DNA of 64,000 nt from Sarea resinae (taxonomy: Eukaryota), in NCBI GenBank assembly GCA_026026165.1, contig JAPEUD010000006.1, forward strand, positions 434,001-498,000, given 5' to 3'. Each line of letters opens with the position of its first letter. Position 1 is the first letter of the stretch. Made by a program: the position numbers and the translations under genes. Below, piece by piece: positions 1 to 36,356 of this stretch. The notes under the pieces were generated by a model that was given only the letters and a program-made list of their open reading frames with translations, ran no database searches and was not told where the DNA came from.

Positions 1-1176
1 CAAGATGGCTGCGAGAATCTTCTCAAATCGTGTAGAAATGCTATCGCCACTAGTGATCCGCAGAATATCGGAAATGCATCTTACGTTAACGAGCTCTGCG
101 CGAAAGCGGACTTGGAATGTACCGACAACGTACAAGACCCTTATTATCAGTCCGGAAGAGGGGCCTACGATATCAGACACTTCAGCCCTGATCCATTCCC
201 ACCAAGCAGCTATCTCGAATACTTGAACACTGCGGATGTACTGGAGGCTATCGGTGCTAGAATCAACTTTACCAGCCACAGCGATGTGGCTCAAGCTGGA
301 TTTACCGCAAGTAAGTTATCGTTCGTGGACGTTGTTGGTGTTGTAAACGTGTCTAATGTCATTCGGATAGCTGGTGATGGCGCGCGAGGCGGTCAAATCG
401 GCCAGCTTTCTTACCTTCTCTCTCAAGGAGTCAGAGTTGCCCTCATCTATGGTGATGCTGATTACATTTGTAATTGGCTCGGTGGTGAGGCTGCCTCGTT
501 TTCGGTCGCCTCACAGGCATCCTACATGCCATTCTACTCTGCTGGTTATGCAGATATTCAGGTCAATGATTCCTACGTTGGTGGAGCTGTACGCTCCTAT
601 GGAAATCTTTCGTTTTCAAGAATTTATGATTCAGGGCACCTTGTCCCAGCTTACCAACCAGAGACCGCATTTACCGTTTTTACACGTATAGTCGAAGGGG
701 CTAATATTGCTACCGGTGAGACGGTTGATCTATCTAGCTTTGGCACCCAAGGAGACGCCAATGCGACCCATACGAATAAAGATGTGTCAGCTCCAAGTCC
801 CACTTGTTGGATTCGAGATATCGCCTCTACTTGTACGGATGAGCAGAAGGCCATGATCATGGAGAACCAAGGTGTAGTGATGGGTGGAGTGCTCTATGAC
901 AAGGCGAGCGATTACAAACCACCATCTTCTTCAGTCGCCGGCAAAGCAGGGAAACCTGGTGCCCTTCCAACTGCCAAGTCGTCTAGCATCGCGGCAGCTT
1001 CACATACGAGCTCATCAAAAGCAGCAAAGTCCTCGAGTAGTGCTGCGACGGGTGTTTATGTAGCCACAGCCGCGCCAAAGGTCTCTCACTTAGGCGTAGC
1101 TGGGGCAGCGATGGAGGTCAATCTACTAGCTCTAGGGTTGAGTGCCATGACGGCGTTGATTGGGGTAAATCTGTGA
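1..1176 (+). CDS. Serine carboxypeptidase (peptidase S10), 5'-truncated by window edge, with Ser/Ala-rich linker and hydrophobic GPI-like C-terminus
   Basis: Frame open from base 1. S10 motifs GRGAYDIR, ALIYGDADYICNWLGGE and FSRIYDSGHLVPAYQP (catalytic Asp/His). In-frame 60-nt intron 311-370 (GTAAGT..CTAAT..TAG). Confidence 0.9.
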   Translation, partial: QDGCENLLKSCRNAIATSDPQNIGNASYVNELCAKADLECTDNVQDPYYQSGRGAYDIRHFSPDPFPPSSYLEYLNTADVLEAIGARINFTSHSDVAQAGFTASKLSFVDVVGVVNVSNVIRIAGDGARGGQIGQLSYLLSQGVRVALIYGDADYICNWLGGEAASFSVASQASYMPFYSAGYADIQVNDSYVGGAVRSYGNLSFSRIYDSGHLVPAYQPETAFTVFTRIVEGANIATGETVDLSSFGTQGDANATHTNKDVSAPSPTCWIRDIASTCTDEQKAMIMENQGVVMGGVLYDKASDYKPPSSSVAGKAGKPGALPTAKSSSIAAASHTSSSKAAKSSSSAATGVYVATAAPKVSHLGVAGAAMEVNLLALGLSAMTALIGVNL

Positions 1177-1642: not shown

Positions 1643-1795
1643 TCGACTCGACCTCTGTTCATGTAGAATTCCATCATTTGTCCAGCACTTCTATCCCTCG
1701 CCTGTTCGACCCAGAAGCATCACACGTCACTGTAAGTAATGAGCCCGAGACCTTCCATCCACAATTATCCATTTTCATTCCCTATTCGACCCTAT

Positions 1796-1888
1796 ATGAT
1801 GAGAATTCCAGCTGGCACCAGTCCTAGAAAGACTTGTACTCTTTTTGCTGCGGATTAGCTTTGCAGGAGTCAATCTCCGCCTATCTGA
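1796..1888 (+). ncRNA. Box C/D snoRNA (snR40-like, predicted 18S Gm562 guide) in the AHA1 5'UTR intron
   Basis: C box ATGATGA 1796-1802 and D box CTGA 1885-1888. Perfect 9-bp flanking inverted repeat TATTCGACC 1783-1791 / GGTCGAATA 1896-1904. Guide GCTGGCACCAG 1811-1821 is complementary to 18S CUGGUGCCAGC. Lies in intron 1732-1969 (GTAAGT..GCTAAT..TAG). Confidence 0.85.
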
Positions 1889-1986
1889 CTTCGTCGGTCG
1901 AATATTTGCTTCATCTAATATCATTACCTTTGTCAATGCGAGATAGAGGCTAATGTGACCGTCTGCTAGTCTTTTTCACCCCCATC

Positions 1987-3151
1987 ATGGTTCTCCACAA
2001 CCCGAACAATTGGCACTGGGTCAATAAGGATGTCTCGGTCTGGGCACGAGAGTATTTAGAGAAGAACCTTGTAGGCCTGAAATCTGGAGAGGATGGCGTC
2101 TCGGCCGAGGTGTCGAAGATTCTGAGCATGGACGGAGACGTGGATGTGAGCCAGCGAAAGGGCAAAGTCATTACCTTGTTCGACCTAAAGTTATCATTAG
2201 AATATCAAGGTACATTTCCTGACTCGTAGAGCGAAAGTCTGGTCTGACTTTGTTTGCAGGCAAGACAAAAGATGAGGGCGACGTTAGTGGCACAATCAAC
2301 ATTCCCGAGGTAGCCCACGATACCGAGGTTGACGAGTATGTCGTATGTCTCTTGGGATCCGATTCCATGGCATGAGTACTGACGGCTTGGACGATTAGTT
2401 TGAGATCGATGTCTACTCCGACGCCAGCTCTAAACAGCCCGTAAAGGATCTGGTGCGATCCAAGCTCCTTCCACAACTTCGAGAAGAGCTTAGCAAGCTC
2501 GGACCATCTCTCGTCGCAGAACACGGCAAGGACATCCAGCATGCTCCTGGTACCGACCCTTCTGCCGGATGGCGACCGGCCAAGGTTTACTCGTCCTCCT
2601 CGGTCAAGGCTCATCCAGCTAGCGATGCCAAATCTTCATCGTCCACCAGCACGGCTCACGCGGATGGCAAGGGACCTCTCGTCAACGTCACCACTGTCAC
2701 TGATACGGAGGAATTCAGAACGACGGCAGCAGAGCTGTACACCACCTTTACGGATCCGCAGCGTATCGCAGCATTCACGCGGGCTCCTCCAAAGGTCTTT
2801 GAGGGGGCCAAGAAGGGAGGAAAGTTTGAGCTATTCGGTGGCAACGTGACAGGAGAGTATGTTGAGTTGGAGGAGCCAACTAAGATCGTTCAGAAGTGGA
2901 GACTGAACCAATGGCCTGCTGGGCATTTTTCCACGCTTGAGATAAAATTCGATCAGAACGATGTCGACTCGGTCACGGTGATGAGAGTGAACTGGGATGG
3001 CGTTCCTATCGGGCAAGAAGATGTCACCAAGAGGAATTGGGGTGAATACTATGTTGTAAGCCTGCCTGAAGCTAATTCGCATCATATATCATCGCTGACA
3101 GCCATGCAGAGAAGCATTAAAACAACCTTTGGATTCGGGACAATCCTGTAA
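1987..3151 (+). CDS. AHA1: Activator of Hsp90 ATPase Aha1
   Basis: N-terminus MVLHNPNNWHWVNKD (NxNNWHW motif), VSQRKGKVITLFD, C-terminal START-like AHSA1 domain ending RSIKTTFGFG. Introns approximately 2210-2259, 2343-2398, 3056-3109. Confidence 0.95.
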
Positions 3152-4051
3152 AAGGGAGGTTGGAAAGGTTCCCTTTTCGCTCCAACGATACAGAGTCCAG
3201 GGCGTTCGCTGCTCGCACGATCTAATGCGAAAAAGAAAATTGTCACGTAGCCAAAGAACGGTATCCCCATCATGGTCAGCAGGGCTGGAGAATAGCGGCG
3301 TTAATCGATCAATCAGAATCACGACCTCAGGAGAGCGATGGATGAGGAATCCGTTTCAGAGACGGAGAGAGAGCGAGCTGCATTTGTATCATCATTCCTC
3401 TTTCGTAGCATAGATTCCGAATAAAGATCCACATTCATCTCTCACTCAGCAATGGATTGATGGACTGTGGTGCTCTATTGTCCGCATGCAGCGATGAAGA
3501 TTATGAAGATTATGAAGATTATGGCGCCCTGCTCGTGGACAGCGAAGCTGCAGCACCTCTCATTGGTGATTGGCGGTGTGGGATGGAGCCCTTGCATTCG
3601 ACCGGCTACGTCGTTGCTGACTGGCTGCGTGACGGGCGGCGATCAGGACAAGCGAACGCCTCCGCTCCTCCGCTCCTCCGCTCCTCCCCTCCCCTGTCAC
3701 GCTCCGGGTTTATCGATTGGCCCAGCCACCTCATCTGCTTGTCGCAAAGCCAACTGGACAATGGGAGGGGTTCGAGAGGTTGGACCACGGGAATGAAGCC
3801 AGCACTCAGTCCCAAGGGGCCGAGAGCTGCTTCTTGTCCTTGACTCTCTTATTCACAGACAGTCCCGTCGCTCACTCACTCCTTTGGCATCAGCATCGCT
3901 GCATCAATAATGGTGGTGGCATAGAGCTGGTGTGTTACATACATACCTAATGTTTACATCCACTACCTACAATTACTCACCTGTTGAATTACCACGGTCG
4001 CAATTGCTTCACGAACTGCCTGTCAGTGCATCATCTCCAGCATACTCATGA

Positions 4052-5846
4052 ATGATGGCGACCGGCCCGATCGAAGATCTAGAAGGCGTCTTCGATGACC
4101 ATCCGTCTCTGTCCGCTTCATTGGAGGATTTCGAGCATGAAAATCGGTCGCCCATCTTCGAGATCCCCTCACACCATTCGGGATTCCAATCCGAGCACTC
4201 GGAACCAGACTCGGATTCCGCGGGACCTTGGTCTCCTCCAGGTTGGCGCAAACAGCATTCGGGAGGTGGATGGTACCGCCAGCAACAGCTCCAACAAGAT
4301 GCGCGAGCTTCAATCAGTCCTTTCAGATCCCGAGAATCGAGTCCGCAATATGAAAGCGCAGCAGAAGGAGATACGACGCTCGCTGCCAACATCCCGCTTC
4401 CCACAGAATCACCTCTCAAGAGATCTCCCAGTCCTGGGCCATATCCTCGCGAGGGACCAGACTTTGCGCCAGCATTTGGAAGTACGAATCACGACACATC
4501 ATCGAGGGACAATCCTAACAACTGTGCGGTCTCCTCTAGTCGATCTGGTTTTTCGTCATAAATGCTAACACCGAACCAGTCATTCGGTTTGCTGTTCGCG
4601 CGGAAGTGCAACATCGCACCGAGCCATTCGAAGCAGCATTCTCCTACGTTCGTCAAAAAATCGACCATGTAACAAAATCTCGCAGCTCCACCCTACTAGC
4701 TATTTCTGTTGCCTTCCTCTCCATCACAATCCTCCGCCTTCTCTTCTTGCCTCCTCCGCCAGCTCCAGTACCAGATCTTGTCAAGGTGGCTGGCCTAGCA
4801 AAATCTTTTGAGCCTCTCATCTTCTATTCCGAAAATGGTGTACAGCAGATTGGCGACCTTCAAGAGACAGGGGTAGCAGTATGGGACCTAGGGGAAAGCG
4901 TGCGGACCACCAACATGACCTCTGCTCCGCTGATAGTCCGGGGGCTCGACGACTTGAGTGAAAGCCTGAAAACGCTGTCAATTGAGTTGACTAAGTTTTT
5001 TGCCAATGTAGACGGAGACATTGACAGGTAAGGCCGGGAACATTTTTCTCTTTGTGGAAGCGACAAGTGTTGACCCTCTGCAGCATTCTCATAGTCATGG
5101 AGTGGGCCAAGCGGGAGCTGTCTCAAGTCTCTTCACTTCCTCTCACATCGATTTCCTCCGTTTTTGATAACGTACATTCGATCCTCTGCCGAGTCGGCGT
5201 CTTTGAGTCTTCAGCTGGCACGCCTACTACCCTTGGAAAGATATTCACGGATCTCTTTGGGCAGTCTCGTCCTCAACGCACCAAGCATACGCTGCAGCGC
5301 ACATTCAATGAATTCTTGGCTGTCTTAGAAGAGAGCATCAATACAGAATTGACTTATTCTATTACTCTTTTTGGTCTCTTTGAAGCCATAGATCGTCAGT
5401 TTCTCAACCTCCAGCGGACTGTTATCCGTGAGTCCGACCAACAGGAGCGGGAAGAGGGCGAGCTTCTCTCATCACTCTGGACCCGCGTGTTGGGACCTAA
5501 TGCGGCGCAGCTGAGGAAGTATGAGAAAAACCGACTCCTACTTGCTACCGTGCGTGAAAAGACTGTCAGGAACAAGCATCTTTTGGTCGACCATAATGGG
5601 AAATTGCTCAATCTCAAGAGCAATCTGGAAATATTGAGGAGGAAGCTGGTCAGTCCTTTGGTACGAAGCAACGACTCGAGCACGTTGTCGGTGGAGGAGC
5701 AGATCCTTGGATTGGACGGAACCTATGACCACTTGCGGGGTGTCAGGGAACGCCAAAAGGGGAAGCTGATGGAGATGCTCTATGGCGCCGGGAAGAAACG
5801 TGCCGGACTGACACGTGGAGATGAGGGTTATGCACTAGAAGGCTGA
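4052..5846 (+). CDS. Hypothetical protein with disordered N-terminus, one transmembrane helix and helical/coiled-coil C-terminus
   Basis: Three ORFs joined in frame by canonical introns 4524-4579 and 5028-5083. Hydrophobic segment LLAISVAFLSITILRLLFL. Confidence 0.8.
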
Positions 5847-6421
5847 TGACACAACGAGCAAAAAAGATCTTGGGACAAGCATGGCTTTCATCGAGCGTGA
5901 TCCAGGCGTCTTTTGAGTGGGCGCAGGAGTACGGGGCAACTTGAAGTGGTTCATAGAAGGCAGTTCCTCCGGCTTCGGCTTTTCAGTTTTGGTCCTCTGG
6001 ACACATGGTTCGGTGCCTTGTTTCTTGGAAGTGCATCTGTTTTTGGATACCTGAGGCGTTGGATGTATAGGTCTTGTGACGAATATTCATAAATTCCATT
6101 CTTACAGCATCGTCAATTTGCGCTTTTCTGCTGCTGGTTCTCGCATTGAAGTATTCGGGAATCTTAATTACCATATTGGTCTGTCATTCAGTGAATGCGG
6201 TCATGACATTCTCGTGATACCTGTCGCTCGCGTGGGGGTCGTACCTGTGGTGTACCTTGCCATACATTTCCGTGCGCGTTCATACCCCGGGGAGACTTCC
6301 TCGCTCTCAGGTACATTTTACGAAGAGCTAATCCTTCGCCAAGCCCTTCATTCGTTTCTCAAATCCCCTGCGGATTCGAGAACTCGACATTTCAACATCT
6401 CAACGTATATTAGCCGTCATC

Positions 6422-7628
6422 ATGCCGCCACGGTTGAATCTCCTGCGAGCTTCCAGGCCAATTGCTCTCCGGCCAAAGGTGGCCCCTCCATCATGGGCCG
6501 TGCAGCCTATGCGTCTCCGTATCGTACCGGTCAGAACCTTCGCCGACGAGAAGAGGCCGTCCAGCGAGATACAGCCAAAAGGCCCCAATATGGATCCACT
6601 CCCTCATGTCAGCGAGGAAGCTGCTGCACTCGGGGATATCACGGGTGAAGGTGGTCCGGAGCTTGAGCAAGGGACTCCGGTACAGGAGGTCAGTGTGCTG
6701 CGTTTGCCTAAAGCCAGATCCTTGCCGTCAAACACCTCAAGATCCTCAGACGCAAAGTGAAGTTTTGGTCGTGATCGCCAGCTTACAGTCTTATGCAGAT
6801 CCTAGAAAGAGACAAGGATGCTCAGGACAAGGCGCCTAAGGTCATCAAGGAAGATATCAAATCTTCGACGCCAAAGGGCACGAGGTCATTCTCCACATCG
6901 ACTCGGCGACTCCAGGAACTTTCCACAATTAGTGTTGAAGATACCGAGGTCATCCCATTCGGCGCGAAATTCGATATCCCACAATTACCCTTGCCAAGTA
7001 ATTCGAATCTCAAACACCGCTACGACCCTGTGGTCCAGCAGGTCACCAATTTGTTGATGCGCCATGGCAAGCAGAGTGTCGCTCAGAGGGTGAGTTTGCC
7101 ATTCCGCCGGCAGAGCTGCTGGTGCAGCATTGTCTGAGTGCATCCATTACGATTATTAGAATTGGCTGAGAAATCCCCCCAAAACAGAACATGTCGCTCA
7201 TCCTGAATCAACTTCGGACTACATCGCCGCCTACGATCAATCCCAATCGTCCTTTGCTTCCTTCCGCACCTCCGCCATCTCATCTACCTCTTAATCCCGT
7301 ACTTTACCTTACGCTGGCGATCGACTCCGTTGCCCCTCTTCTCCGAATCCGATCCCAGAAGGGTGCAGCAGGTGGTGGTGTAGCTTTGCAGATCCCCGTC
7401 CCGCTGGGACTACGGCAACGACGAAGGACAGCTATCGAGTGGATTCTAGATGCCGCGAGCAAGCGGAAATTCCGGGGCAGTGGTCGAGGCGGATTGGCTC
7501 AGAGGGTGGCGGAGGAGATCATCGCGGTGGTGGAGGGCAAGAGCGGAGTTTGGGACAGGAGGAACGGGGTTCATAAGCTGGCTGTCAGTGCTCGTGCTAA
7601 TCTTACATTTGGCCAGCGGAGGCGATGA
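6422..7628 (+). CDS. RSM7: Mitochondrial small-subunit ribosomal protein uS7m
   Basis: Arg-rich mitochondrial presequence. S7 motifs TNLLMRHGKQSVAQR, IPVPLGLRQRRRTAIEWILDAA and VHKLAVSARAN. Introns approximately 6689-6799 and 7090-7188. Confidence 0.93.
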
Positions 7629-9210
7629 TCAGCATTTCGGGGGGTTTGAAACTTATCAGCTATGTATCATTATCAATGGCCATATTCCACAAACTTGGCG
7701 TTCTCGACGAGGGGCCCATCCCCATACTATCAGTCGCCTTTTGACTTGCTACGTCGGCACATGTGATGAGCCGGCTCGGGATCATATCGAGGAGCTGCCC
7801 GGTGAAGCGGATCACATGCATGGCGTGTCAACGCCGTTGGGCATCATGTGGGCTGGCGTCGTCGTCGTCGTCTCACAGGGTGTGTAACACGTCGGGAATT
7901 GAAGGGCGGAGATATCTCCGCGTGGGCGGGTTGAGTGACGGAGCATTCGTATGATGTCGGTGCGACCTGCCTGACGGTGCATGTTTCACCGCCTTGCTGG
8001 TGGTGGCGGACGGTCCAAACCAAAAAGCGGATCTCATGCGGATTTAATCGCCGTCGTTCCCTATCAATAGCAATAGCAATAGCAATAGCATGCAATCTTG
8101 ATCAGTCCTTGGTGTGTTATCATATTGGTAAGCTCGACCATCCATCATCGCCACTTCTCGTGCCTGAGCGGCAACCGAACCTCGTCTGATCGGATTGATA
8201 CATCCAAGTCAGGACAGCCAGCCCATCCAAGAGACCGTCCGAGCCTCGAGAGCCTTGACGACCGTCAGCATCTTCACTACATCGGCCATCTACTATCATC
8301 ATTCAAATGCTTCAAGGCGTCTCCTAGGGTTCCAGCTTCCACTGTTTGCTCCATCTAGGGTTACCGTCGAGTTCCATTGCGCTTAGACTCTGGAGTAATC
8401 GGTGCCTCCCGCCCCTCGCCCGCCCGCTCGCTCGCTCGCTCTCTCCACCTCTCCACCTCCCGTCGTGCCAAGTCAACTAAAGGCAGTCGAAAGCCAAATC
8501 TCCGCCCGCTCGACATCAGCCGTCAGGTAATCGACCTGCACTCTTCGTCCATCACTTCACCCTCGTAACGAAGCAGATCCCCCAACTTGGGCTCTTCTTT
8601 GCCGTGCACTTGCAGCATTTCCATCCTCATGTCGACTGTCAAGCATCGTGCAGAGGCCGCTTCCTTCATCGAGCGTGGCTGACCTGACCGGTCCCGCCCG
8701 ATCGCTGTCCATGCTATAGCAGCTAGAGATCTGAACGGCTAAACCTCCATTACGAGTACTTTCCGCGATTACCAGAGAAGAATACCTTGCTCCATCATCA
8801 ATTGCCCTCTCCTACGCCTTTCACTCGACGTTCCGCCGTCACCGCAAAGACATCTGCACTAATTGCCGAAAGTCGTTTGGTGGGGTCCCCTGACGTCGCA
8901 TCGCCTCTTGCCGTGCCACTAGAGCATCGTGAGGCCGCCAGCGGTTTTCACAAGCGTCGCCGACATTTATTCGCACTCAACTCAGTGGAATCAACTCAGT
9001 GGAATCCTGCCTTTCAGCTTGCGTGAAATACAAATCGAATATAACGGATACGAGGCATTCGAATATTTGTTCTAGCTCAGACTCGAAGAATCCCCTTCTC
9101 TGGTCTCGACGACTGCAACCGAGAGTTTCCATCACACCACCCTCGAAGGGTCCGAGGGTTCCCCTCTTGGAAGCATCACCTAATCGGGTCCTGCACGAGA
9201 GGTTGGCAAG

Positions 9211-11556
9211 ATGGTGAACACAATGTCTCTTGAGTCCGCCCTGGACGAGGAGCGGCGGGAAATTCTCAAACTCTTGGAGGGCACACAGAATAGGCCTCGA
9301 GTCTCGCAGAGCCCGCAAGCGCCTGCTTCGTTCGGTCCGCAAGGGCGTACCGCCAGCCCGGCAGGAGCAAGGTCTCCCGTGCGGAGTATGCTGGATATTG
9401 GAAACAGTTCGCCGGTACGAAGCATGCTAGATGTCGGAGATGTCCCTCTTCGCACTGGTTCAGCTACGGGCGGCGCCCCGCCTACGGTTCGGAGTCTTCT
9501 CGATCCTATGGGCCCGCCAAGGAGACATCGTGCAGATGGAGCCGATGAGCCCGGTCTCTATCGCACGCGCTCCGAACCCTCTGTTGAGCCGTCACACCAT
9601 CACTTTCCAGCTCCGGACCGCGGTCCCAATGCCGAGTATCAGTTCGAGATGCTTCCGAGCGTCCCATCACATATACCCAAGAGAGTCACACAAGGAGGGA
9701 AGAAGCCGAAGAAGGATCGAGATACCATGCCGAGTTCTTTGAGTAGTGTTCTGGAGAGGGCTGGAGACCTGGGCTGGACTGGCGCTCAAGACCGCGGACG
9801 TGCCTTGTCGCCGGCGGGCATTGGTCGCGGCAGCAAGTCCAAGTCCAAGTCTCCTACACCGAGGTCAAAGTCCCCAAATCTGAATCCGAATTCCTTTACT
9901 CCGCTGCCAGTATCTGGAACATTCGTATCTGATGATGGGTTACAAACGTTCGATATGACTAGTGCATATCGGCGATTATCCGACGCGGCTCTGCTTCGTT
10001 CTGGCGGTAGTCTGTCCATGCTTCCACACCACGAACGAGCTGATAGTGGGGAGGCTTTGGGACCTTCGGGTGGTGTGCGATTGCAAAAGGATTACTACGA
10101 CGATAATGGAGAGAATGTTGTTGATAGTAGTGATGAGGAATCAGAATCCGGCGATGAAGGGAGAGGAAGGAGGAAGACCAGAAAAGCCAAGAGCTCTGGA
10201 GAAGATCAGGGCGAGTCCGAGGACAGTGATGGAGAGGATGAACCGGAGGGGCCAGTGGGCATGGGTAAGAAGAAGAAGCGAACCAAGGCTGCAAAGAGCT
10301 TGCTGGCCGCCGCAGAAGAAGAGCGTAAGGGTTCCGACTTCTTAAAGATATGATCGTACTGACTAGTCTATAGGGCAACGTCTTTCTAAGACTTATAAAG
10401 TCAAATCGCTCCTAGATCCCTTGGATGCTGAGGCGCCTACAGAGCGAATGGCGAACAAGAAGGCTGGTGTTCATCCGAATACCAGCTTTGATCAGAATGC
10501 TTCGGGCATATCGACGCCAGTCTCATCCGACACCGAAGCTGATCTGACCGACATACGGCGTGCCCAACGCTTGAATGTCAGCATGTCTCCGATCACATCA
10601 ACGCCAGAATCGCACCGAGTGATTCGGACAATTATCCGAGGCGAATTTTCGAAAATGCAACAAGAGGCTGAGGAGGGGCTTCGTCGGCAAAGAACTTATC
10701 TGGTGGCTACGGATCTGAGCGAAGAGGCCGCTCATGCTTTGGAATGGACCATCGGGACCGTCCTTAGAGATGGCGATACCCTTTTAGCCGTCTACGCCAT
10801 CGACGAGGCCGAGGTCGCCACCAAAGGCTCGGAGAATGACCCTCAGGGGGTGGGGATTGGCGAGGCCGTCTCGTCAATGGCAGACAGCGTTGCGGCCGTC
10901 AGGAACTTTACCACGCTGGCCGCTAGCGCCGTCGAACACGGCGGTCACGGTAGCTCCGCGTCCCCGCTGGCGACGATGACCTCGGCCGATCCAAGCATGT
11001 CTAGTCATTCCCCGGACACACGAGGCATGTCTCGAGCCGAGCAGGAGCGTCGACATGCGGCCGAGGATATCTCGCAGCGGTGTGTCAAGCTCCTGCGGAA
11101 GACGAGGTTGCAGGTGCGCGTCGTGATCGAGGTCATCCATTGCAAGAGTCCGAAGCATCTGATCACGGAAGTGGTAAGTTTCTCCGTCGTAGTGGATTTG
11201 GTCTCCTGCTGAAGAGAATGCGCAGATTGATTTCATCGAGCCCACGCTCGTCATCCTCGGCTCGCGGGGCCGAAGTGCTCTCAAGGGGTATGTATTTTTG
11301 TTTTTTTTTTCTTCTCCTTCTCCTTCTGCAAAGCCGAGAGAGAGCACCCATGAACTGATGCGTGTCTTGTGTCTTTTTTGTTTCTTCTAGCGTGCTCCTC
11401 GGCTCCTTTTCAAACTACCTCGTCACCAAGTCGTCGGTGCCCGTCATGGTGGCGCGCAAACGACTGCGCACGCACAGCAAATACAAGAAGACGAATATTC
11501 GTCTGTCGAACAATCTGACGAATCCAAAGGGCTTGGCGGCTGCTAAGATTGATTGA
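9211..11556 (+). CDS. Universal stress protein (USP) domain protein with long disordered N-terminus
   Basis: YLVATDLSEEAAHALEWTIGTVLRDGD and LGSRGRSALKGVLLGSFSNYLVTKSSVPVMV motifs. Introns approximately 10325-10373, 11174-11225, 11289-11390. Confidence 0.9.
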
Positions 11557-31100: not shown

Positions 31101-32061
31101 TCGTGGATATTGCCTTTGCTCCTTTCTTCCTGTTGAAATGGGCCTTGACTGGCGGGTCGGGTTCGGCATCCAAGGAGTCTGGGTACAGAGCCAATCTTAA
31201 TGATCTCCGGGATCTGGATGAGGGGTTATACCAGGGGCTGGTGAGTTGCTCTTTTCCCTTTCATCTGATCCACATATCCATCCATCACCCAATCAACATG
31301 TACAAACCCTACGCTTGACATAACCCAGTTGCCCCATTTCATTGATCGGACTCAATTAACGGTCAATTTCGCAGCTCCAACTCAAAAACTACCCCGGCGA
31401 CGTCGAAGATTTCTCCCTCAACTTCACCGTCACCGACCCGATCTCCATCACCCCTTCCACCGGCACCGCCGCCACGACGAAAACCATAACGCGCGACCTC
31501 AAACCCAACGGCGCCAACACGCCCGTGACTAACTCCAACCGGCTCGTCTACATATCCTACATCGCGCGCCACCGGCTCTCGACGCGGCCGCAGCTGCAGA
31601 CCTCGGCCTTTTTGCGCGGCCTGTCCTCGATCATCCAGCCGGCCTGGCTCTCCATGTTCAACCAGTCGGAGCTGCAGACGCTGGTGGGCGGCACGGCGTC
31701 GCCGCTCGACGTGGCCGACCTGCGCCGGCACACGCTGTACGGCGGCGTGTACGCGCTGGGCCACGACGGCGTCGAGCACCCCTCGGTGCGCCTCTTCTGG
31801 GACGTCATGCGCGACCTGTCCGACGCCGACCGCCGCAAGGTCCTCAAGTTCGTCACCTCGACCCCGCGCGCCCCGCTGCTCGGCTTCGGCTCCCTCAACC
31901 CGCGCTTCAGCATCCGCGACGCCGGCGACGACGAGGATAGGCTGCCTAGTACCAGCACCTGTGTCAATCTCCTCAAGCTGCCTCGCTATGGCTCCAAGGA
32001 GGTGCTGAGGAGCAAGTTGCTGTATGCTGTCAATTCCGGCGCGGGCTTTGATCTGAGTTGA
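28158..32061 (+). CDS. HUL5: IQ-motif HECT E3 ubiquitin ligase (Hul5/UBE3C family)
   Basis: N-terminal FTGNSRRPRQVNLSGR, IQ motif TIQRTWRGHR, HECT EAGIDGGGVTKEF and RLPSTSTCVNLLKLP..GFDLS. Introns approximately 30165-30219 and 31241-31374. Confidence 0.93.
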
Positions 32062-32561
32062 GTCAATCTTTTGGATGGGGTCTGTGTGTGTAAGTGTGGG
32101 ACGGGAGAAGGAGGTGGGGAGGGGGGGTTATTTGATAGTGGTTAATGGACGAGGGACAAGGAATAGGGAGTAAGAGCGAAAAGCGAATGTAGACAGGGCT
32201 GTACAGAGGCATTTTCATCTACCATGGTTGGACTGAACTGAACTGGATCGCACATCGCCTTGCCACTTCCTTTGCACGTACACCATCGCATTGCATTTTG
32301 GACAGACTTGCACACTTAGTGATAAATCATATTTATATGCAGAGAATCTATTAATCTAAGAGATCTACTCAACAGCTAAACGATAGATTTGCTGTCCAGC
32401 TGACGCTCAGCGTACAGTACAGCAGCTTTCCTCGACCCAATAAAACAAGGCATGTACAACGGCTACTGCTCTTCGCGGAACACTGCAGCTAACAAGTCAG
32501 CGACATGAATGATGTCAATCAATCAGAAGCCTTGATTAGGCAGTGATAATGAGAAGGGATA

Positions 32562-32648
32562 TCAGATACAAAGGCCCGGTCAGGGGCCAATCTCATCAAT
32601 GCCAACGTGTGGCTATGCCGACCGTCGTGAAAATGATTTGATCATCAT
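32562..32648 (-). ncRNA. Box C/D snoRNA snR73-like (25S Cm2959)
   Basis: C box ATGATGA 32648-32642. Guide TCACGACGGTC pairs with 25S GACCGUCGUGA. Degenerate D'. D box CTGA 32565-32562. Confidence 0.85.
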
Positions 32649-32841
32649 GAAAGAGTAGTTGTAAAGGGAGCCAAGAGGCAAAAGTCTGCAATTGCTTACA
32701 TACCTCTTCATTCATTTCGACAGAAGTTTCTGCATCACGGTAGTAATAGTAATTGAAGAGTGAGCTCCTGAGACTAGACGAGATCTATATCAGTGAAGTT
32801 CGAGAAGCTTTGAGATAAGACTTCGGATGTCGACACGCGGA

Positions 32842-32918
32842 TCAGTCCGGACAGGTCTCGTCGTCGCCTTTAAAAGACTTGGACATATGCTTGTCTATTG
32901 TGTACGTCGATTCATCAT
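32842..32918 (-). ncRNA. Box C/D snoRNA snR74-like (18S Am28)
   Basis: C box ATGATGA. 13-nt guide AGACAAGCATATG pairs with 18S CAUAUGCUUGUCU, followed by a degenerate D' (CCAA). D box CTGA 32845-32842. Confidence 0.88.
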
Positions 32919-33057
32919 ATCGGCGGCGTCGGCAAGTCTCGTAAAGAAAAGGATGGGCTTACCCTTATAGCTGAATGGATAGATACCTATCTGATCGAAG
33001 AAGTTAGTGCCGATTCATCGCCAGCAAACGTGTACAAAATAAGGTGAATCACAACTG

Positions 33058-33139
33058 TCAGAAAATGCATGAATGGTATATAAAATATGGTGTCTACATC
33101 GGAAACCCGAATCAGACTCGTCATCTAAATGCTCATCAT
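33058..33139 (-). ncRNA. Box C/D snoRNA snR75-like (25S Gm2288)
   Basis: C box ATGATGA. Guide TTAGATGACGAG before D' CTGA pairs with 25S CUCGUCAUCUAA. A second element CCATTCATGC pairs with nearby GCAUGAAUGG. D box 33061-33058. Confidence 0.9.
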
Positions 33140-33293
33140 GAAGTGAACAACGCTATTGAAGAATGAGTAGAACCTTACCTAATTGCAATGACATCAAGTC
33201 GACTACAAGTCTCTGATCTGTGGCTTCTGGAAATGGCATTAGCACATTTCCGCCTGCATTGAATATATAGAATCGAAGGCATTGAATTGCTAT

Positions 33294-33394
33294 TCAGTGG
33301 GCGAGGTTTTCTAGGCCTGCCACAAAGGGCATATCCATTCATAAATCAGCACCGATCTTGTCGGATACTGTCGGAGCCCAGTGCCATTCATCCT
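33294..33394 (-). ncRNA. Box C/D snoRNA snR76-like (25S Cm2197)
   Basis: C box AGGATGA. Guide GCACTGGGC before D' CCGA pairs with 25S GCCCAGUGC, and +5 falls on the third C. D box CTGA 33297-33294. Confidence 0.8.
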
Positions 33395-33544
33395 TAGACA
33401 GAGTTGAAGGAATAGAGAATAAGATATATAACATACTGAGTTATGAAATCGTGCCAAAGACGTGGAGGGTGACCTATGATGACTTGATCGGTCAGCATGA
33501 CTCTCGTAGATAGATCACGAAACAGGTGTATAAGATAAAGAAGC

Positions 33545-33629
33545 TCAGTCTAAGCCATTAGATATCGTCGAGGACCCGAGGGTCTCAGTCGGTAATTTCC
33601 AGCGTATAAGTTGTCAAATTGATCATCTT
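33545..33629 (-). ncRNA. Box C/D snoRNA snR77-like (18S Um578)
   Basis: Degenerate C box AAGATGA. Guide GCTGGAAATTACCG before CTGA 33588-33585 pairs with 18S CGGUAAUUCCAGC with one bulged nt. Terminal D box 33548-33545. Confidence 0.8.
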
Positions 33630-34039
33630 CGCCTCCATTCGCATTCGCGGAAAAATAAAATAATTGTAAAGCTTACCTAAAGCAACGACTTCTATGAGCA
33701 GATCGAGTCACCGAAGAGATGATTCGAGACTCGGACAAGTTTGAGATGCTTGTTGTCAGTTCAATTACGATCGTCCATTAGCGGCACCAGCAAAGTTTGC
33801 AACAGCGAACGCTATAACGTTCATCGTAGCCTTTGCAGCTCCATCCAAGGACACATGTGGCAAGCTTATGATGCTCACGACATCATCGCGATGGGCCTTA
33901 GTATAGCTCCAGCCAAAATCGATCGGCCAGGTATAAGAGTACGTTGTTTTCCTAAAAACCTTAAAGCCATAGACGATTAGTGGCAGTTCAAACAACAGAT
34001 TGCTATGCAAGACATCAGAGACGACAGGAACAGCAGATA

Positions 34040-34119
34040 TCAGACTGACGTGCAAAGTGAGTTTCATTCCCCCGATGGAGGTCAAAGACTCTAGTTTTGC
34101 GGTTTATACAAATCATCAT
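34040..34119 (-). ncRNA. Box C/D snoRNA with two guides: snR78-like (25S Um2421) and snR72-like (25S Am876)
   Basis: C box ATGATGA 34119-34113. D' TTGA preceded by AAACTAGAGTC (pairs with GACUCUAGUUU). D CTGA 34043-34040 preceded by TTTGCACGTCAG (pairs with CUGACGUGCAAA). The +5 rule gives U and A respectively. Confidence 0.9.
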
Positions 34120-34346
34120 ATGAGAAAGACGTCAAGAGACAAAGACAGTGGGGTGGGCGCTGAAAGAAAATCGACGCAGCAAAAAAGCTTACCAGTATGT
34201 CATGCAGCCAGACACGGCCGCACCCAGTCCACACGCATTTGCAGCAAGATCATTGAAGCGTGGTGGAAGTGAAAGGTCACGGCCAAGGCTGGCTGAAGGT
34301 TGTGTGGAGAGAGATGGAGGTGAAGCAAAGACAAGAGAGCAGAAAT

Positions 34347-34462
34347 GTTTTATGGGTGAGCTAAGCTAGTCGCCTACACGCGAATGATCTCGCTTGTGCG
34401 CCAAGATTTCAGTGGATGGCAGAATCGGAATAAGAATACATCCGCAATGAGCAGTCACGTGA
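34347..34462 (-). promoter_or_regulatory. Putative promoter of the snoRNA host gene with Homol D-like box
   Basis: CAGTCAC at 34452-34458, then a CATAAAA TATA-like element near 34350 and a CT-rich tract on the minus strand. Confidence 0.5.
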
Positions 34463-34572
34463 AGGGCTCGCAGTTCGGAAATTACCTGGAAAATGATAAC
34501 TCTAACACGATATATCCCATGGAGAAGTAAACAGAGATATAGACCACCAACCCTACATAGTAGACACCGTCT

Positions 34573-36356
34573 TCAAGAGACCGGATGCGCCAGTCCTTTC
34601 CTTCGGACGTCCTCGACATACCCCCAATACCTCCTCCCAGTGCCTGCTCTTAACTTCCTCCCCCACTTGATCATCAGCCAAACCGTCATACACTGCGCCA
34701 GCCCCGCACCCGCAGCCGTCAGAAAGGCATTTTGCAGTCCCATATTCTTTACCCACGGCGTGATACCATATCCTACAGCAAAACTCATCGTATTTCGAAT
34801 CAGGATGACCGTGATCATGACTTCCCCGCTCAGGTCCTTGTAGCTATCCAATGCGTAACTGATGCTAAGTTGTAGACCAATCGTGTTGGTGGCCGCGATG
34901 ATGCCCATTCCTATCACGACGCCCGGCCAGGCGATACCGTGCGCGGCACCGACGCCCCAGAGGATCAGACCGCCTGGGATCAAGAGCAGGGACGGCGTGA
35001 ACAACCACAGACGATGTTCGGGTTCCATTATGCCTCCGTTGCGACGCGCAAGGTAGAGGATGAATCTGTTGCCAAAAGGCCCCGTGTATAGTACTGCAAC
35101 CGCGACACCAATGAGCGCGGAGACGTAGGAGAGGCCGACCATGGCCGAGGAAAAATTGTAAGGGGGCGAGCCGAGGATCAGGGAGGCGGTGCCATTGAGC
35201 ACGTTGAACCAGATTAGATTACTGCCGTAGGAGAAACCAGCATAAGAGATTACGGGGAGAGTGAGGAAGACGAGAGGATGGACCATCATCTGGAGAAGGA
35301 TGCGGGGACTCTTGTGGAGGGCTGAAGGCTTGATGAGGGCCATCTTCTGGAGAAACGTTTGGTGTGCGGGAGAGGACAGGGTGGTTGTCCCAAATTCAAC
35401 ATCTGAAGGATCCCTGGAGGAGGGAATGGGGGCCTTTTCGCCCTTTTCGGAGAGGGCCGGGGTGGCGTTCACTTCGTGATTTTGATCTTGATCCTTATCG
35501 GCGGTGCTATTGATGGTATCTGAGACTGAGTCCGGATCCGATTCTGGCTCCGGTTCGTCCGCGATGTTATGACGGTCGAAATTGGTTTCTTCGAGGAAGA
35601 AGAAGAGGAAGACGAAGCCTATCGCGCAAAAGATTGCACACCAGTACTGTTTAGAGCCAAGTATGTCAGCACAACCTCGAGCCGACTCTCTTTCCTTCGG
35701 CTTACCAGAACCCACTTCCAGCCTTGGCCGTCATTGATGAAGCCGGCAAGGATAGGCGCAAGATAATTGCTGCCCACCAAAAACAGCCCATAAAGCGCCA
35801 TATATCCGCCTCGCTCGTGGGTGAAGTATATATCCGTGACCGAGATCTCGCACAGTGATTCGATGGGCGCACCAAAGAAACCCTGGAGAATCTTGTTCGC
35901 GATCCACTGCCCGTTGCTCCGCGTATAAGGCGCCCAGATCATGATAGCCATGGTGGCCAAGATGGAAATCAGGTATACGGGTCTCTTCCCGTACTGTAGC
36001 GCCAAGGGCTGCCAGACCAGACAGCCCCAGCCAAAGAACAGAAACATATAGCCTGTACCATCATTGAGATCGCCCAGGGAGAGACCGGTGGCGAGGGAGA
36101 TGGGCTCTAGAATGGAATAGATGGCTGCGGATGCGATGCCGACCATGAGCGTGTAGACACACATGCAGACGGTCGAGAGAAGTTTGCGACGCGGCGACCA
36201 GTTGAGAGGGTCCTCTGGGGAGCTGGACGGGGACGGCACGAGCACGACGTCGTGTTGTTGGCCCGAGGCATGTTTGGCGTGCATGGTGCCTTCGAGATCG
36301 ACCAGGTGGACGGTGCCAGGAATTGTATCATGGCGAATTGCAGAAAGAGATGCCAT
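34573..36356 (-). CDS. MFS transporter (HOL1/DHA1-like)
   Basis: IPGTVHLVD, VLVPSPSSSPEDPLNWSPRRK, ALQYGKRPVY, DIYFTHERG, MEPEHRLW and about 12 hydrophobic segments. One intron near 35650-35705. Confidence 0.92.

Follow-up and report, generated by a model that had tools for sequence, protein, structure and literature searches.

A probable snoRNA gene cluster I of Sarea resinae: six box C/D snoRNAs in predicted introns of a minus-strand non-coding host gene

A seemingly empty gap between two open reading frames (ORFs) in a 64-kb stretch of the Sarea resinae genome (hereafter the window) very probably represents the ascomycete 'snoRNA gene cluster I', in which a single non-coding host gene on the minus strand carries six introns with one C/D snoRNA each. 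The six box C/D snoRNAs are located on the minus strand at 32.48-34.19 kb (Table 1), in the order snR78/snR72 double guide, snR77, snR76, snR75, snR74, and snR73. The gap is bordered on the left by a plus-strand ORF with a HECT domain, which ends at 32061, and on the right by a minus-strand ORF ending at 34573, which is situated immediately downstream of an ORF with an MFS match. None of the four local ORFs (73-106 aa) has a Pfam match at E≤0.1. Rfam scores, guide/rRNA matches, and conservation in other fungi together place the cluster beyond chance.

Table 1. Positions of the gap, the predicted host gene, the snoRNAs, and the candidate promoter elements, numbered along the window; exons and introns are a model built from donor, branch, and AG motifs.
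Feature	Positions	Strand	Details
Gap	32061 to 34573		~2.5 kb between the two flanking ORFs
Candidate promoter elements	CACGTG 34456-34461; TAGGGTT 34549-34555		upstream of exon 1; function predicted
Exon 1	34193..34350	-	3' end set by donor at 34192; 34350 is a placeholder
Intron 1	33952..34192	-	241 nt; GTAAGC, branch ACTAAT (A 33977), AG ending 33952
snoRNA 1	34037..34127	-	double guide snR78 + snR72; C box ATGATGA 34119, D box CTGA 34043
Exon 2	33677..33951	-	275 nt, unusually long
Intron 2	33474..33676	-	203 nt; GTAAGC, branch GCTGAC (A 33492), AG ending 33474
snoRNA 2	33543..33633	-	snR77 orthologue; Afu_300, 75.0 bits (gathering 40)
Exon 3	33437..33473	-	37 nt
Intron 3	33227..33436	-	210 nt; GTATGT, branch GCTAAT (A 33239), AG ending 33227
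snoRNA 3	33292..33398	-	snR76 orthologue; Afu_513, 88.4 bits (gathering 48)
Exon 4	33179..33226	-	48 nt
Intron 4	32991..33178	-	188 nt; GTAAGG, branch ACTAAC (A 33004), AG ending 32991
snoRNA 4	33056..33141	-	snR75; 82.5 bits (gathering 40)
Exon 5	32963..32990	-	28 nt; 24 nt with alternative AG
Intron 5	32768..32962	-	195 nt; GTAAGC, branch ACTGAT (A 32790), AG ending 32768
snoRNA 5	32838..32922	-	snR74 orthologue; C box ATGATGA 32918, D box CTGA 32845
Exon 6	32704..32767	-	64 nt
Intron 6	32483..32703	-	221 nt; GTATGT, branch GCTGAC (A 32497), AG ending 32483
snoRNA 6	32560..32652	-	snR73 orthologue; 31.4 bits (gathering 37), E 0.02
Last exon	32300..32482	-	32300 is a placeholder; TATAAA motif at 32337

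The earlier note on this DNA, which had recognized the cluster, proposed a search against Rfam as a check. The gathering score is exceeded by three of the six (Afu_300, Afu_513, and snR75), while snR73 falls just below it and snoRNAs 1 and 5 have no usable match: snoRNA 1 gives a weak snoZ122 match alone (23.2 bits, E 5.1), and snoRNA 5 gives none at E≤10. At snoRNA 3, the snR76 model overlaps the Afu_513 match (37.1 bits, E 1.4e-5). All six snoRNAs end in a CTGA D box, and the C-to-D length ranges from 77 to 101 nt. The C box is ATGATGA in four of them, with one mismatch each in snoRNA 2 (AAGATGA) and snoRNA 3 (AGGATGA); several D' boxes, including those of snoRNAs 1 and 5, are non-consensus. 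Contiguous pairing of the flanks, which would form a terminal stem, extends over 6 bp in snoRNA 2 and merely 1-3 bp in the other five.

The guides were compared with a fungal-type rDNA unit (L017) that is complete and comes from a contaminant contig of a prokaryote assembly; it serves as a surrogate for the organism's own rRNA. Seven guide elements of 9-13 nt pair with it, six of them perfectly (13, 12, 12, 11, 11, and 9 nt) and one as 8+7 nt with one bulge, and each pairing stops one nucleotide ahead of a D or D' box. In snoRNA 1, the D' guide (snR78), which precedes a non-consensus D' box, pairs over 11 nt with LSU 2844-2854, and the D guide (snR72) over 12 nt with LSU 875-886. The D' guide of snoRNA 2 matches SSU 573-585 apart from a single bulged A, and its predicted target is the equivalent of yeast U578. 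The D' guides of snoRNAs 3, 4, and 6 pair over 9, 12, and 11 nt with LSU 2173-2181, 2711-2722, and 3381-3391, respectively, and a 13-nt guide in snoRNA 5 pairs with SSU 25-37 (the A28 site, E 0.006). In snoRNA 4, moreover, an accessory element of 10 nt is complementary to LSU 2733-2742; accessory pairing has been published for snR75 (PMC3116282).

When the target is taken as the rRNA nucleotide paired to the fifth nucleotide upstream of the D or D' box, the surrogate yields A878, U2847, C2176, G2714, and C3383 or C3384 in the LSU and U576 and A28 in the SSU. These positions fall at sites published for the snR78, 72, 77, 76, 75, 74, and 73 orthologues, and the spacing of 133 between U2847 and G2714 equals that of yeast (2421-2288) and of N. 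crassa (2383-2250), the site numbers being taken from PMC5824354, PMC3116282, and PMC2780460. The seven predicted methylation sites are the equivalents of yeast 25S A876, U2421, C2197, G2288, and C2959 and 18S U578 and A28. Perfect matches of at least 10 nt number seven, whereas shuffles average 2.2 and never exceed 6; this excess is modest, and the weight of the guide matches lies in their adjacency to D/D' boxes and their agreement with published sites, not in the raw count. One of these seven, a 10-nt match of snoRNA 2 to LSU 2415-2424, is put down to chance, because it lies within the surrogate's group I intron. The conserved element on the D side of snoRNA 3 was considered as a guide to a further methylation site and rejected in that role: its best LSU duplex reaches -29.6 kcal/mol, while shuffles average -26.8 and reach -29.8. 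The element is probably a short extra-pairing region, of a type described for snR76 (PMC3116282). By eye, AGAAA in snoRNA 3 stands opposite TTTCT just 5' of the target. A scan of viral contigs for the rRNA target pattern gave 0 matches.

The guides of snR78, 77, 76, 75, 74, and 73, which the earlier note had listed in that order, are all present as listed; what it overlooked is the snR72 guide in snoRNA 1. Since snoRNA 1 is a double guide, seven yeast guide functions are contained in six RNAs. Downstream of snoRNA 6, Rfam returned no further C/D match, and no separate 3' snR72 was found. The S. cerevisiae snR72-snR78 cluster has orthologous guides in the same order and shares the snR75 accessory pairing element, but there each of seven snoRNAs carries one guide, and snR72 comes last, at the 3' end, whereas here there are six, the first of them double. 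The snR78+snR72 double guide has been published for Pezizomycotina (PMC2780460, PMC3596301, PMC5033589).

Conservation was assessed in 112 metagenome loci picked by the snoRNA-3 motif, a set that includes yeasts without introns. All six guide motifs occur in 47 of the 112 loci, with the same order in 46 of the 47. The snoRNA blocks alone align to the window (74-100% identity); exons and spacers gave no alignment to any of the 112 loci. The two snoRNAs with poor Rfam support (1 and 5) are kept at the same relative positions in ~50 distinct fungal loci: the boxes and both guides of snoRNA 1 are retained in 55 distinct sequences and the boxes and guide of snoRNA 5 in 54, while snoRNA 6 is kept in 49. 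Measured between the 78 and 73 motifs, the cluster covers 1467 nt here, and 1046-2092 nt (median 1325) in the 46 ordered loci; a span of ~1.5 kb is given in PMC5824354. Unlike in most cluster I loci, the spacer between snoRNA 1 and snoRNA 2 is long: the guide motifs are 496 nt apart, compared with ~220-370 nt in most loci and ~900 nt in two.

The arrangement around the snoRNAs points to splicing. As the earlier note had claimed, donors are present on the minus strand at 34192, 33676, 33436, 33178, 32962, and 32703, and the succession of donor, C box, D box, branch point, and AG is found for all six snoRNAs. Hexamers of the GT[AG][ACT]G type occur just 12 times in 2.2 kb of the minus strand, and six of these are the host-gene donors. 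The distances are regular in all six predicted introns (188-241 nt): the donor lies 39-73 nt from the C box, the A of the CTRAY branch site 52-65 nt from the end of the D box, and the AG 12-25 nt from the branch A. Acceptor choice in the motif scan is ambiguous in introns 1, 4, 5, and 6. Alternative AGs end at 33960 in intron 1, at 32987 in intron 4, at 32774 and 32785 in intron 5, and at 32489 in intron 6. The earlier description of most internal exons as 15-70 nt long fits four of the five (exons 3 to 6) and fails for exon 2, while the absence of a coding frame is borne out: the longest ATG ORF of the spliced model has 65 aa, and there are no Pfam matches.

It could be argued that these splice-like motifs are unused and that an unspliced polycistronic precursor is cut between the snoRNAs by RNase III (Rnt1) and trimmed by exonucleases, a route documented for the orthologous snR72-78 cluster of S. 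cerevisiae, which has no introns and is cleaved by Rnt1 at stem-loops (PMC5033589). However, not only are donor, branch, and acceptor regularly placed around every snoRNA, but such motifs are also enriched ~5-6-fold around the orthologues. A strong donor hexamer precedes the C box at a distance of 8-110 nt in 210 of 370 distinct cases, compared with 37/370 for the reverse complement and 32.7/370 for shuffles. For RCTRAY..YAG downstream of the D box, the count is 131 of 174 (median distance 53-56 nt), compared with 30 and 25.9 in these controls. The snR77 and snR76 regions of the set have a strong upstream donor in merely 27 of 57 and 31 of 83 cases, respectively, which is partly explained by the intronless yeasts that it includes. 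Moreover, the window's spacers between snoRNAs contain no AGNN-capped hairpin with at least 5 contiguous bp, whereas a budding-yeast-type locus (L034), in which the snR72 motif follows snR73, has three such hairpins of 8-10 bp and one donor-like hexamer. The cluster is also described as intronic in filamentous fungi (PMC3596301, PMC5033589). Processing by Rnt1 is, on this evidence, very unlikely.

Even less credence can be given to the idea that some or all of the snoRNAs are independent genes with their own promoters, the cluster being merely a tandem array. The A. fumigatus orthologues were entered simply as an 'intergenic' cluster (PMC2377427), and putative separate promoters have been reported for another cluster, cluster V (PMC2780460). 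Here, however, four of the five snoRNA-to-snoRNA spacers are only 128-182 nt long and are occupied by a branch site and AG, a short exon, and a donor; the order and compact span are fixed across Ascomycota (the 46 ordered loci; PMC5824354); and in S. pombe the cluster is reported to be transcribed from one start site and polyadenylated (PMC4138321). Two candidate promoter elements stand upstream of exon 1 (Table 1), and their motif types, CACGTG and TAGGGTT, occur 9 and 7 times, respectively, in the whole window. They may be Cbf1-like and Tbf1-like sites.

A departure from six simple introns is harder to dismiss and, if somewhat doubtful, has to be reckoned with: exon skipping could leave two snoRNAs in one lariat, and/or exon 2 could contain a seventh, snoRNA-free intron. 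In N. crassa, transcripts of the cluster that lack exon 2, or exons 2 and 3, have been described (PMC2780460), and exon skipping has also been reported for this cluster in Candida (PMC5033589). In the window, several acceptors have alternatives, and exon 2 holds GTGAGC (33878) and ACTGAC..AG (33756/33749), but the co-occurrence of these motifs within 275 nt could be due to chance, and the exon 2 stretch is not conserved. A more specific proposal is that exon 2 holds a lineage-specific seventh intron (33878 to 33749), as the relic of a lost snoRNA intron or with a young, still unrecognized C/D-like RNA; this is unlikely. If true, such an intron would offer a snapshot of snoRNA-intron gain or loss, which has been proposed for this cluster (PMC3596301). 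C/D-like boxes that such a young RNA could use are CGATGA near 33826 and CTGA at 33760. A seventh snoRNA at 33750-33895 was rejected, as the candidate has a C-like box ATGATGT and aligns to none of the 112 loci. Exon 2 gave no Rfam match at E≤10, and the sole 10-nt rRNA match of the candidate (SSU 409-418, E 0.6), likewise discarded, lies away from any box.

In the host gene with six snoRNA-bearing introns, which remains the preferred reading, RNA polymerase II would produce one minus-strand transcript without coding capacity, from which each intron would be excised by the spliceosome. The lariat would then be debranched and trimmed by exonucleases from both ends, and trimming would halt at Snu13/Nop1/Nop56/Nop58 bound to the C/D boxes, thereby releasing the mature snoRNA. 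The spliced exons would be left over as a by-product, a situation known from host genes of the UHG/GAS5 type, and the snoRNPs may guide 2'-O-methylation of seven rRNA sites. The locus resembles the animal UHG/GAS5 hosts in having one C/D snoRNA per intron, ~50-70 nt ahead of the branch site, and dispensable, unconserved exons; it differs from them in that there is no sequence relationship and the snoRNA set is another one.

The closest counterpart is cluster I of Euascomycetes/Pezizomycotina, with the same six snoRNAs, order, and targets, one snoRNA per intron, a double guide in first place, and short, unconserved, non-coding exons. In N. crassa, cluster I reads CD5-CD24-CD12-CD7-CD21-CD31, and its spliced host RNAs, called UHG-like, were confirmed by RT-PCR and sequencing (PMC2780460). 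For Euascomycetes, all members of the cluster are described as intronic and the exons as non-coding, without long ORFs (PMC3596301). From the orthologous cluster of A. fumigatus, five snoRNAs were cloned in 2008 (PMC2377427); cluster I of that species lies between Afu4g11310 and Afu4g11320 and comprises Afu-40, -188, -300, -513, and -515. The window differs from A. fumigatus in that its matches to the A. fumigatus-derived Rfam families are good but not identical and in that the Rfam match to Afu_190 is 31 kb from the cluster, whereas in A. fumigatus Afu_190 is in the next intergenic region (PMC2377427).

The earlier note's claim of novelty for the local architecture cannot be upheld, as the intronic layout with non-coding exons is already described in PMC3596301 and PMC2780460. 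Indeed, the cluster, its order, the fused snR78/72 guide, the one-per-intron layout, and the non-coding host have all been published for filamentous ascomycetes; the locus is thus real but ordinary, one more orthologue with nothing new biologically. Its meaning is chiefly one of annotation, since a multi-exon non-coding gene and six RNAs fill a gap where ORF-based pipelines miss them. The locus may find modest use as a clean training example for finders of snoRNAs and host genes, and it could add one observation on how the spacer between the first two snoRNAs of this cluster varies.

The minus strand between 32200 and 34700 was read directly and its motifs were listed by script, and every element named in the earlier note was confirmed, namely the donors, boxes, branch sites and AGs of a predicted six-snoRNA intronic cluster. 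The snoRNAs, numbered 1-6 from 5' to 3' on the minus strand, are orthologues of snR78/72, snR77, snR76, snR75, snR74 and snR73. Hexamers of the GT[AG][ACT]G type occur just 12 times on this strand from 34500 to 32300, and six of the 12 are the donors (see the table). At all six snoRNAs, the C box (ATGATGA in four, AAGATGA in snoRNA 2 and AGGATGA in snoRNA 3) lies 39-73 nt after the donor and is followed after 77-101 nt by a terminal CTGA box D, after another 52-65 nt by a CTRAY motif and after a further 12-25 nt by an AG. Predicted introns 1-6 measure 241, 203, 210, 188, 195 and 221 nt, with the acceptor AG ambiguous by a few nucleotides in introns 1, 4, 5 and 6, and predicted internal exons 2-6 measure 275, 37, 48, 28 and 64 nt. 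We infer transcription as one unit, the splice junctions, the mature ends and the rRNA methylations.

Features of the cluster, with guide pairings to the rDNA unit of contig L017
Feature	Position	Strand	Detail
Donor, intron 1	34192	-	GTAAGC
Donor, intron 2	33676	-	GTAAGC
Donor, intron 3	33436	-	GTATGT
Donor, intron 4	33178	-	GTAAGG
Donor, intron 5	32962	-	GTAAGC
Donor, intron 6	32703	-	GTATGT
snoRNA 1	34037-34127	-	snoZ122, 23.2 bits, E 5.1 (permissive scan)
snoRNA 2	33543-33633	-	Afu_300, 75.0 bits (gathering 40)
snoRNA 3	33292-33398	-	Afu_513, 88.4 bits (gathering 48)
snoRNA 4	33056-33141	-	snR75, 82.5 bits (gathering 40)
snoRNA 5	32838-32922	-	
snoRNA 6	32560-32652	-	snR73, 31.4 bits (gathering 37), E 0.02 (permissive scan)
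L017 SSU	5002-6801		
L017 5.8S	7008-7161		
L017 LSU	7291-11087		contains group I intron
snoRNA 1 D guide	LSU 875-886		12 nt perfect
snoRNA 1 D' guide	LSU 2844-2854		11 nt perfect
snoRNA 2 D' guide	SSU 573-585		8 + 7 nt, one bulged A
snoRNA 3 D' guide	LSU 2173-2181		9 nt perfect
snoRNA 4 D' guide	LSU 2711-2722		12 nt perfect
snoRNA 4 accessory element	LSU 2733-2742		10 nt perfect
snoRNA 5 D' guide	SSU 25-37		13 nt perfect
snoRNA 6 D' guide	LSU 3381-3391		11 nt perfect

At the Rfam gathering thresholds, four RNAs were found in the whole window, three of them inside the cluster region on the minus strand. In a second, permissive scan over 31500-35500, an snR76 match (37.1 bits, E 1.4e-5) overlapped Afu_513 and a snoR77Y match (21 bits) overlapped Afu_300; the weak snoZ122 match to snoRNA 1 is due to an identical D-side guide, and snoRNA 5 had no match at all. 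Checked against Rfam, the six snoRNAs of the earlier note therefore divide into three that pass, one that nearly does (snoRNA 6) and two that depend on other evidence. In alignments including the window (55, 54 and 49 distinct sequences for snoRNAs 1, 5 and 6), the C box, guides, D'/C' regions and D box are near-invariant and the rest is variable, which speaks for snoRNAs 1 and 5, missed by Rfam.

The order of the cluster is likewise conserved. A metagenome scan with a snoRNA 3 motif, the D-side element GGCCTAGAAAACC...ACTGA, retrieved 112 loci, 47 of which contain all six guide motifs; the order 78-77-76-75-74-73 is kept in 46 of these, the single exception reflecting a spurious extra 9-mer. 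When 2.3 kb of the window was compared with the 112 loci by BLAST, just six blocks aligned, namely the six snoRNAs (74-100% identity), and neither spacers nor exons, including exon 2, aligned to any of them.

The guides were paired with surrogate rDNA, that is, eukaryotic rDNA contaminating prokaryote assemblies and not this species' own rRNA. A search pattern composed of the snR75 guide and accessory element led to 18 fetched loci and had no matches in viral contigs. Contigs filed as prokaryotic (L017, L003) contain eukaryotic rDNA units that are complete and have group I introns, and the assemblies carrying eukaryotic rDNA include a Bryobacteraceae MAG and a Nostoc isolate; these units are evidently eukaryotic contamination and probably fungal. 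In pairing with L017, every guide stops one nucleotide short of a D or D' box, and the fifth-nucleotide rule predicts as targets A878, U2847, C2176, G2714 and C3383 or C3384 in the LSU, and U576 and A28 in the SSU. The predicted bases and their spacing agree with the published sites of the orthologues. In particular, U2847 and G2714 are 133 nt apart, as are yeast 2421 and 2288 (numbers from PMC5824354 and PMC3116282) and N. crassa 2383 and 2250; PMC2780460 gives, for the N. crassa orthologues CD21, CD24, CD5, CD12, CD7 and CD31, Am28 and Um575 in 18S and Am856, Cm2159, Gm2250, Um2383 and Cm2917 in 26S rRNA. Seven perfect matches to L017 reach at least 10 nt; shuffled sequences give 2.2 on average and at most 6, so the raw count is only modestly above chance. 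One of the seven, falling in the group I intron, is a chance match; the weight of the guide matches lies in the positions of the other six, not in their raw count.

The D and D' pairings of snoRNA 1 reveal a double guide: the D' element corresponds to snR78 and the D element to snR72, both pairing with the LSU. The interpretation in the earlier note is supported with one correction, as it had identified the first snoRNA with snR78 only; the same double guide is described for N. crassa CD5 in PMC2780460, and for Pezizomycotina generally. The snoRNA 2 guide (33589-33602, minus strand) reads GGAAATTACCG and exceeds its 18S target by one A, which produces a bulged duplex; 56 of the fetched loci have the three-A form of this guide and 31 have two A, the exact form, and the Rfam Afu_300 consensus likewise has three A. 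The D-side element of snoRNA 3 (33298-33322, minus strand) is conserved from yeasts to the window. It forms no rRNA duplex better than shuffles; AGAAA alone lies opposite a TTTCT that adjoins the methylation target on its 5' side. The element fits the short 'extra base-pairing' region of yeast snR76, for which PMC3116282 reports experimental evidence.

Splice signals were also counted around the orthologues, in distinct 102-nt regions upstream of C boxes (identical duplicates, sequences with <110 nt upstream and those lacking GATGA within 50 nt of the guide were dropped). A strong donor hexamer (GTAAGY, GTATGT, GTGAGT or GTACGT) was present in 210/370, compared with 37/370 reverse complements and 32.7/370 shuffles (78, 40/52; 77, 27/57; 76, 31/83; 75, 41/73; 74, 33/54; 73, 38/51), the fraction being lowered by intron-poor yeasts in the comparison set; the median donor-to-C box distance is 38-44 nt. 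At the three D boxes that a motif serves to locate, to which the branch and acceptor test was limited, RCTRAY then YAG followed in 131 of 174 cases (reverse complement, 30; shuffles, 25.9), with a median D box-to-branch distance of 53-56 nt that agrees with the 52-65 nt of the window. In S. cerevisiae, the snoRNAs are released not by splicing but by Rnt1 cleavage at AGNN-capped hairpins. That this route operates here is very improbable. The inter-snoRNA spacers of the window contain no AGNN tetraloop with at least five contiguous closing pairs, whereas L034, a locus of the budding-yeast type (with an snR72 motif after snR73), has three such hairpins of 8-10 pairs and one donor-like hexamer, although the hairpin test is crude and L034 is its one positive control. 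No ATG ORF in the spliced model, 843 nt long if its placeholder ends are counted, exceeds 65 aa, and four ORFs of 73-106 aa inside the gap matched nothing in Pfam at E<=0.1. The gap is flanked by a HECT-domain gene on the plus strand, which ends at 32061, and by a minus-strand ORF that ends at 34573 and follows directly after an ORF matching MFS_1. CACGTG (34456-34461) and TAGGGTT (34549-34555), which occur nine and seven times in the whole window, are located upstream of exon 1; they may be Cbf1- and Tbf1-type sites, and perhaps promoter elements that the host gene has in common with ribosomal-protein genes.

The fourth Rfam match of the window, Afu_190 (1794-1889, plus strand, 81.3 bits), lies between a GTAAGT donor (1731) and GCTAAT..TAG (~1950-1968) in the region 1731-1990. 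About 20 nt after the TAG, an ORF for an Aha1-type Hsp90 co-chaperone (Aha1_N, E 4.6e-21; AHSA1, E 2.2e-21) opens with its ATG at 1987, so Afu_190 looks like a snoRNA in the 5'-UTR intron of a protein-coding gene. The A. fumigatus orthologue is listed as intergenic (Afu4g11320/Afu4g11330), with 18S Gm557 as predicted target, in PMC2377427.

The sole loose end of the locus is exon 2. Between 33750 and 33895 on the minus strand, it includes an imperfect C/D-like stretch (ATGATGT at ~33887, CGATGA at ~33826, CTGA at 33760), as well as donor-like GTGAGC (33878) and ACTGAC..AG (33756/33749). The stretch showed no conservation in the 112 loci and no Rfam match, and may be a relic, an extra intron or chance; long, unconserved and with internal splice-like motifs, exon 2 may hide an additional intron.

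Mitrovich et al. (Science, 2010) are cited in the papers on this cluster. Five C/D snoRNAs, including Afu-300 and Afu-513, were cloned in 2008 from the orthologous A. fumigatus cluster (Afu4g11310-Afu4g11320) and termed intergenic (PMC2377427). In 2009, N. crassa clusters were assigned to non-coding host genes of the UHG type, whose splice sites are canonical and whose spliced transcripts were confirmed by RT-PCR and sequencing, with exon skipping in cluster I (PMC2780460). A 2013 comparison of fungi, among them five Aspergillus/Neosartorya species and Coccidioides, describes all cluster I snoRNAs of Euascomycetes as intronic, with exons lacking long ORFs, and derives the snR78/72 intron from recombination (PMC3596301). 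Moreover, the S. pombe cluster is transcribed from one start site and polyadenylated (2014; PMC4138321), and cluster order and a length of ~1.5 kb are conserved throughout Ascomycota (2018; PMC5824354). The local architecture, in which the earlier note had seen the novelty, is therefore not new, as the same layout is described in PMC2780460 and PMC3596301. The locus is orthologous to a cluster that has been published and is widely conserved.
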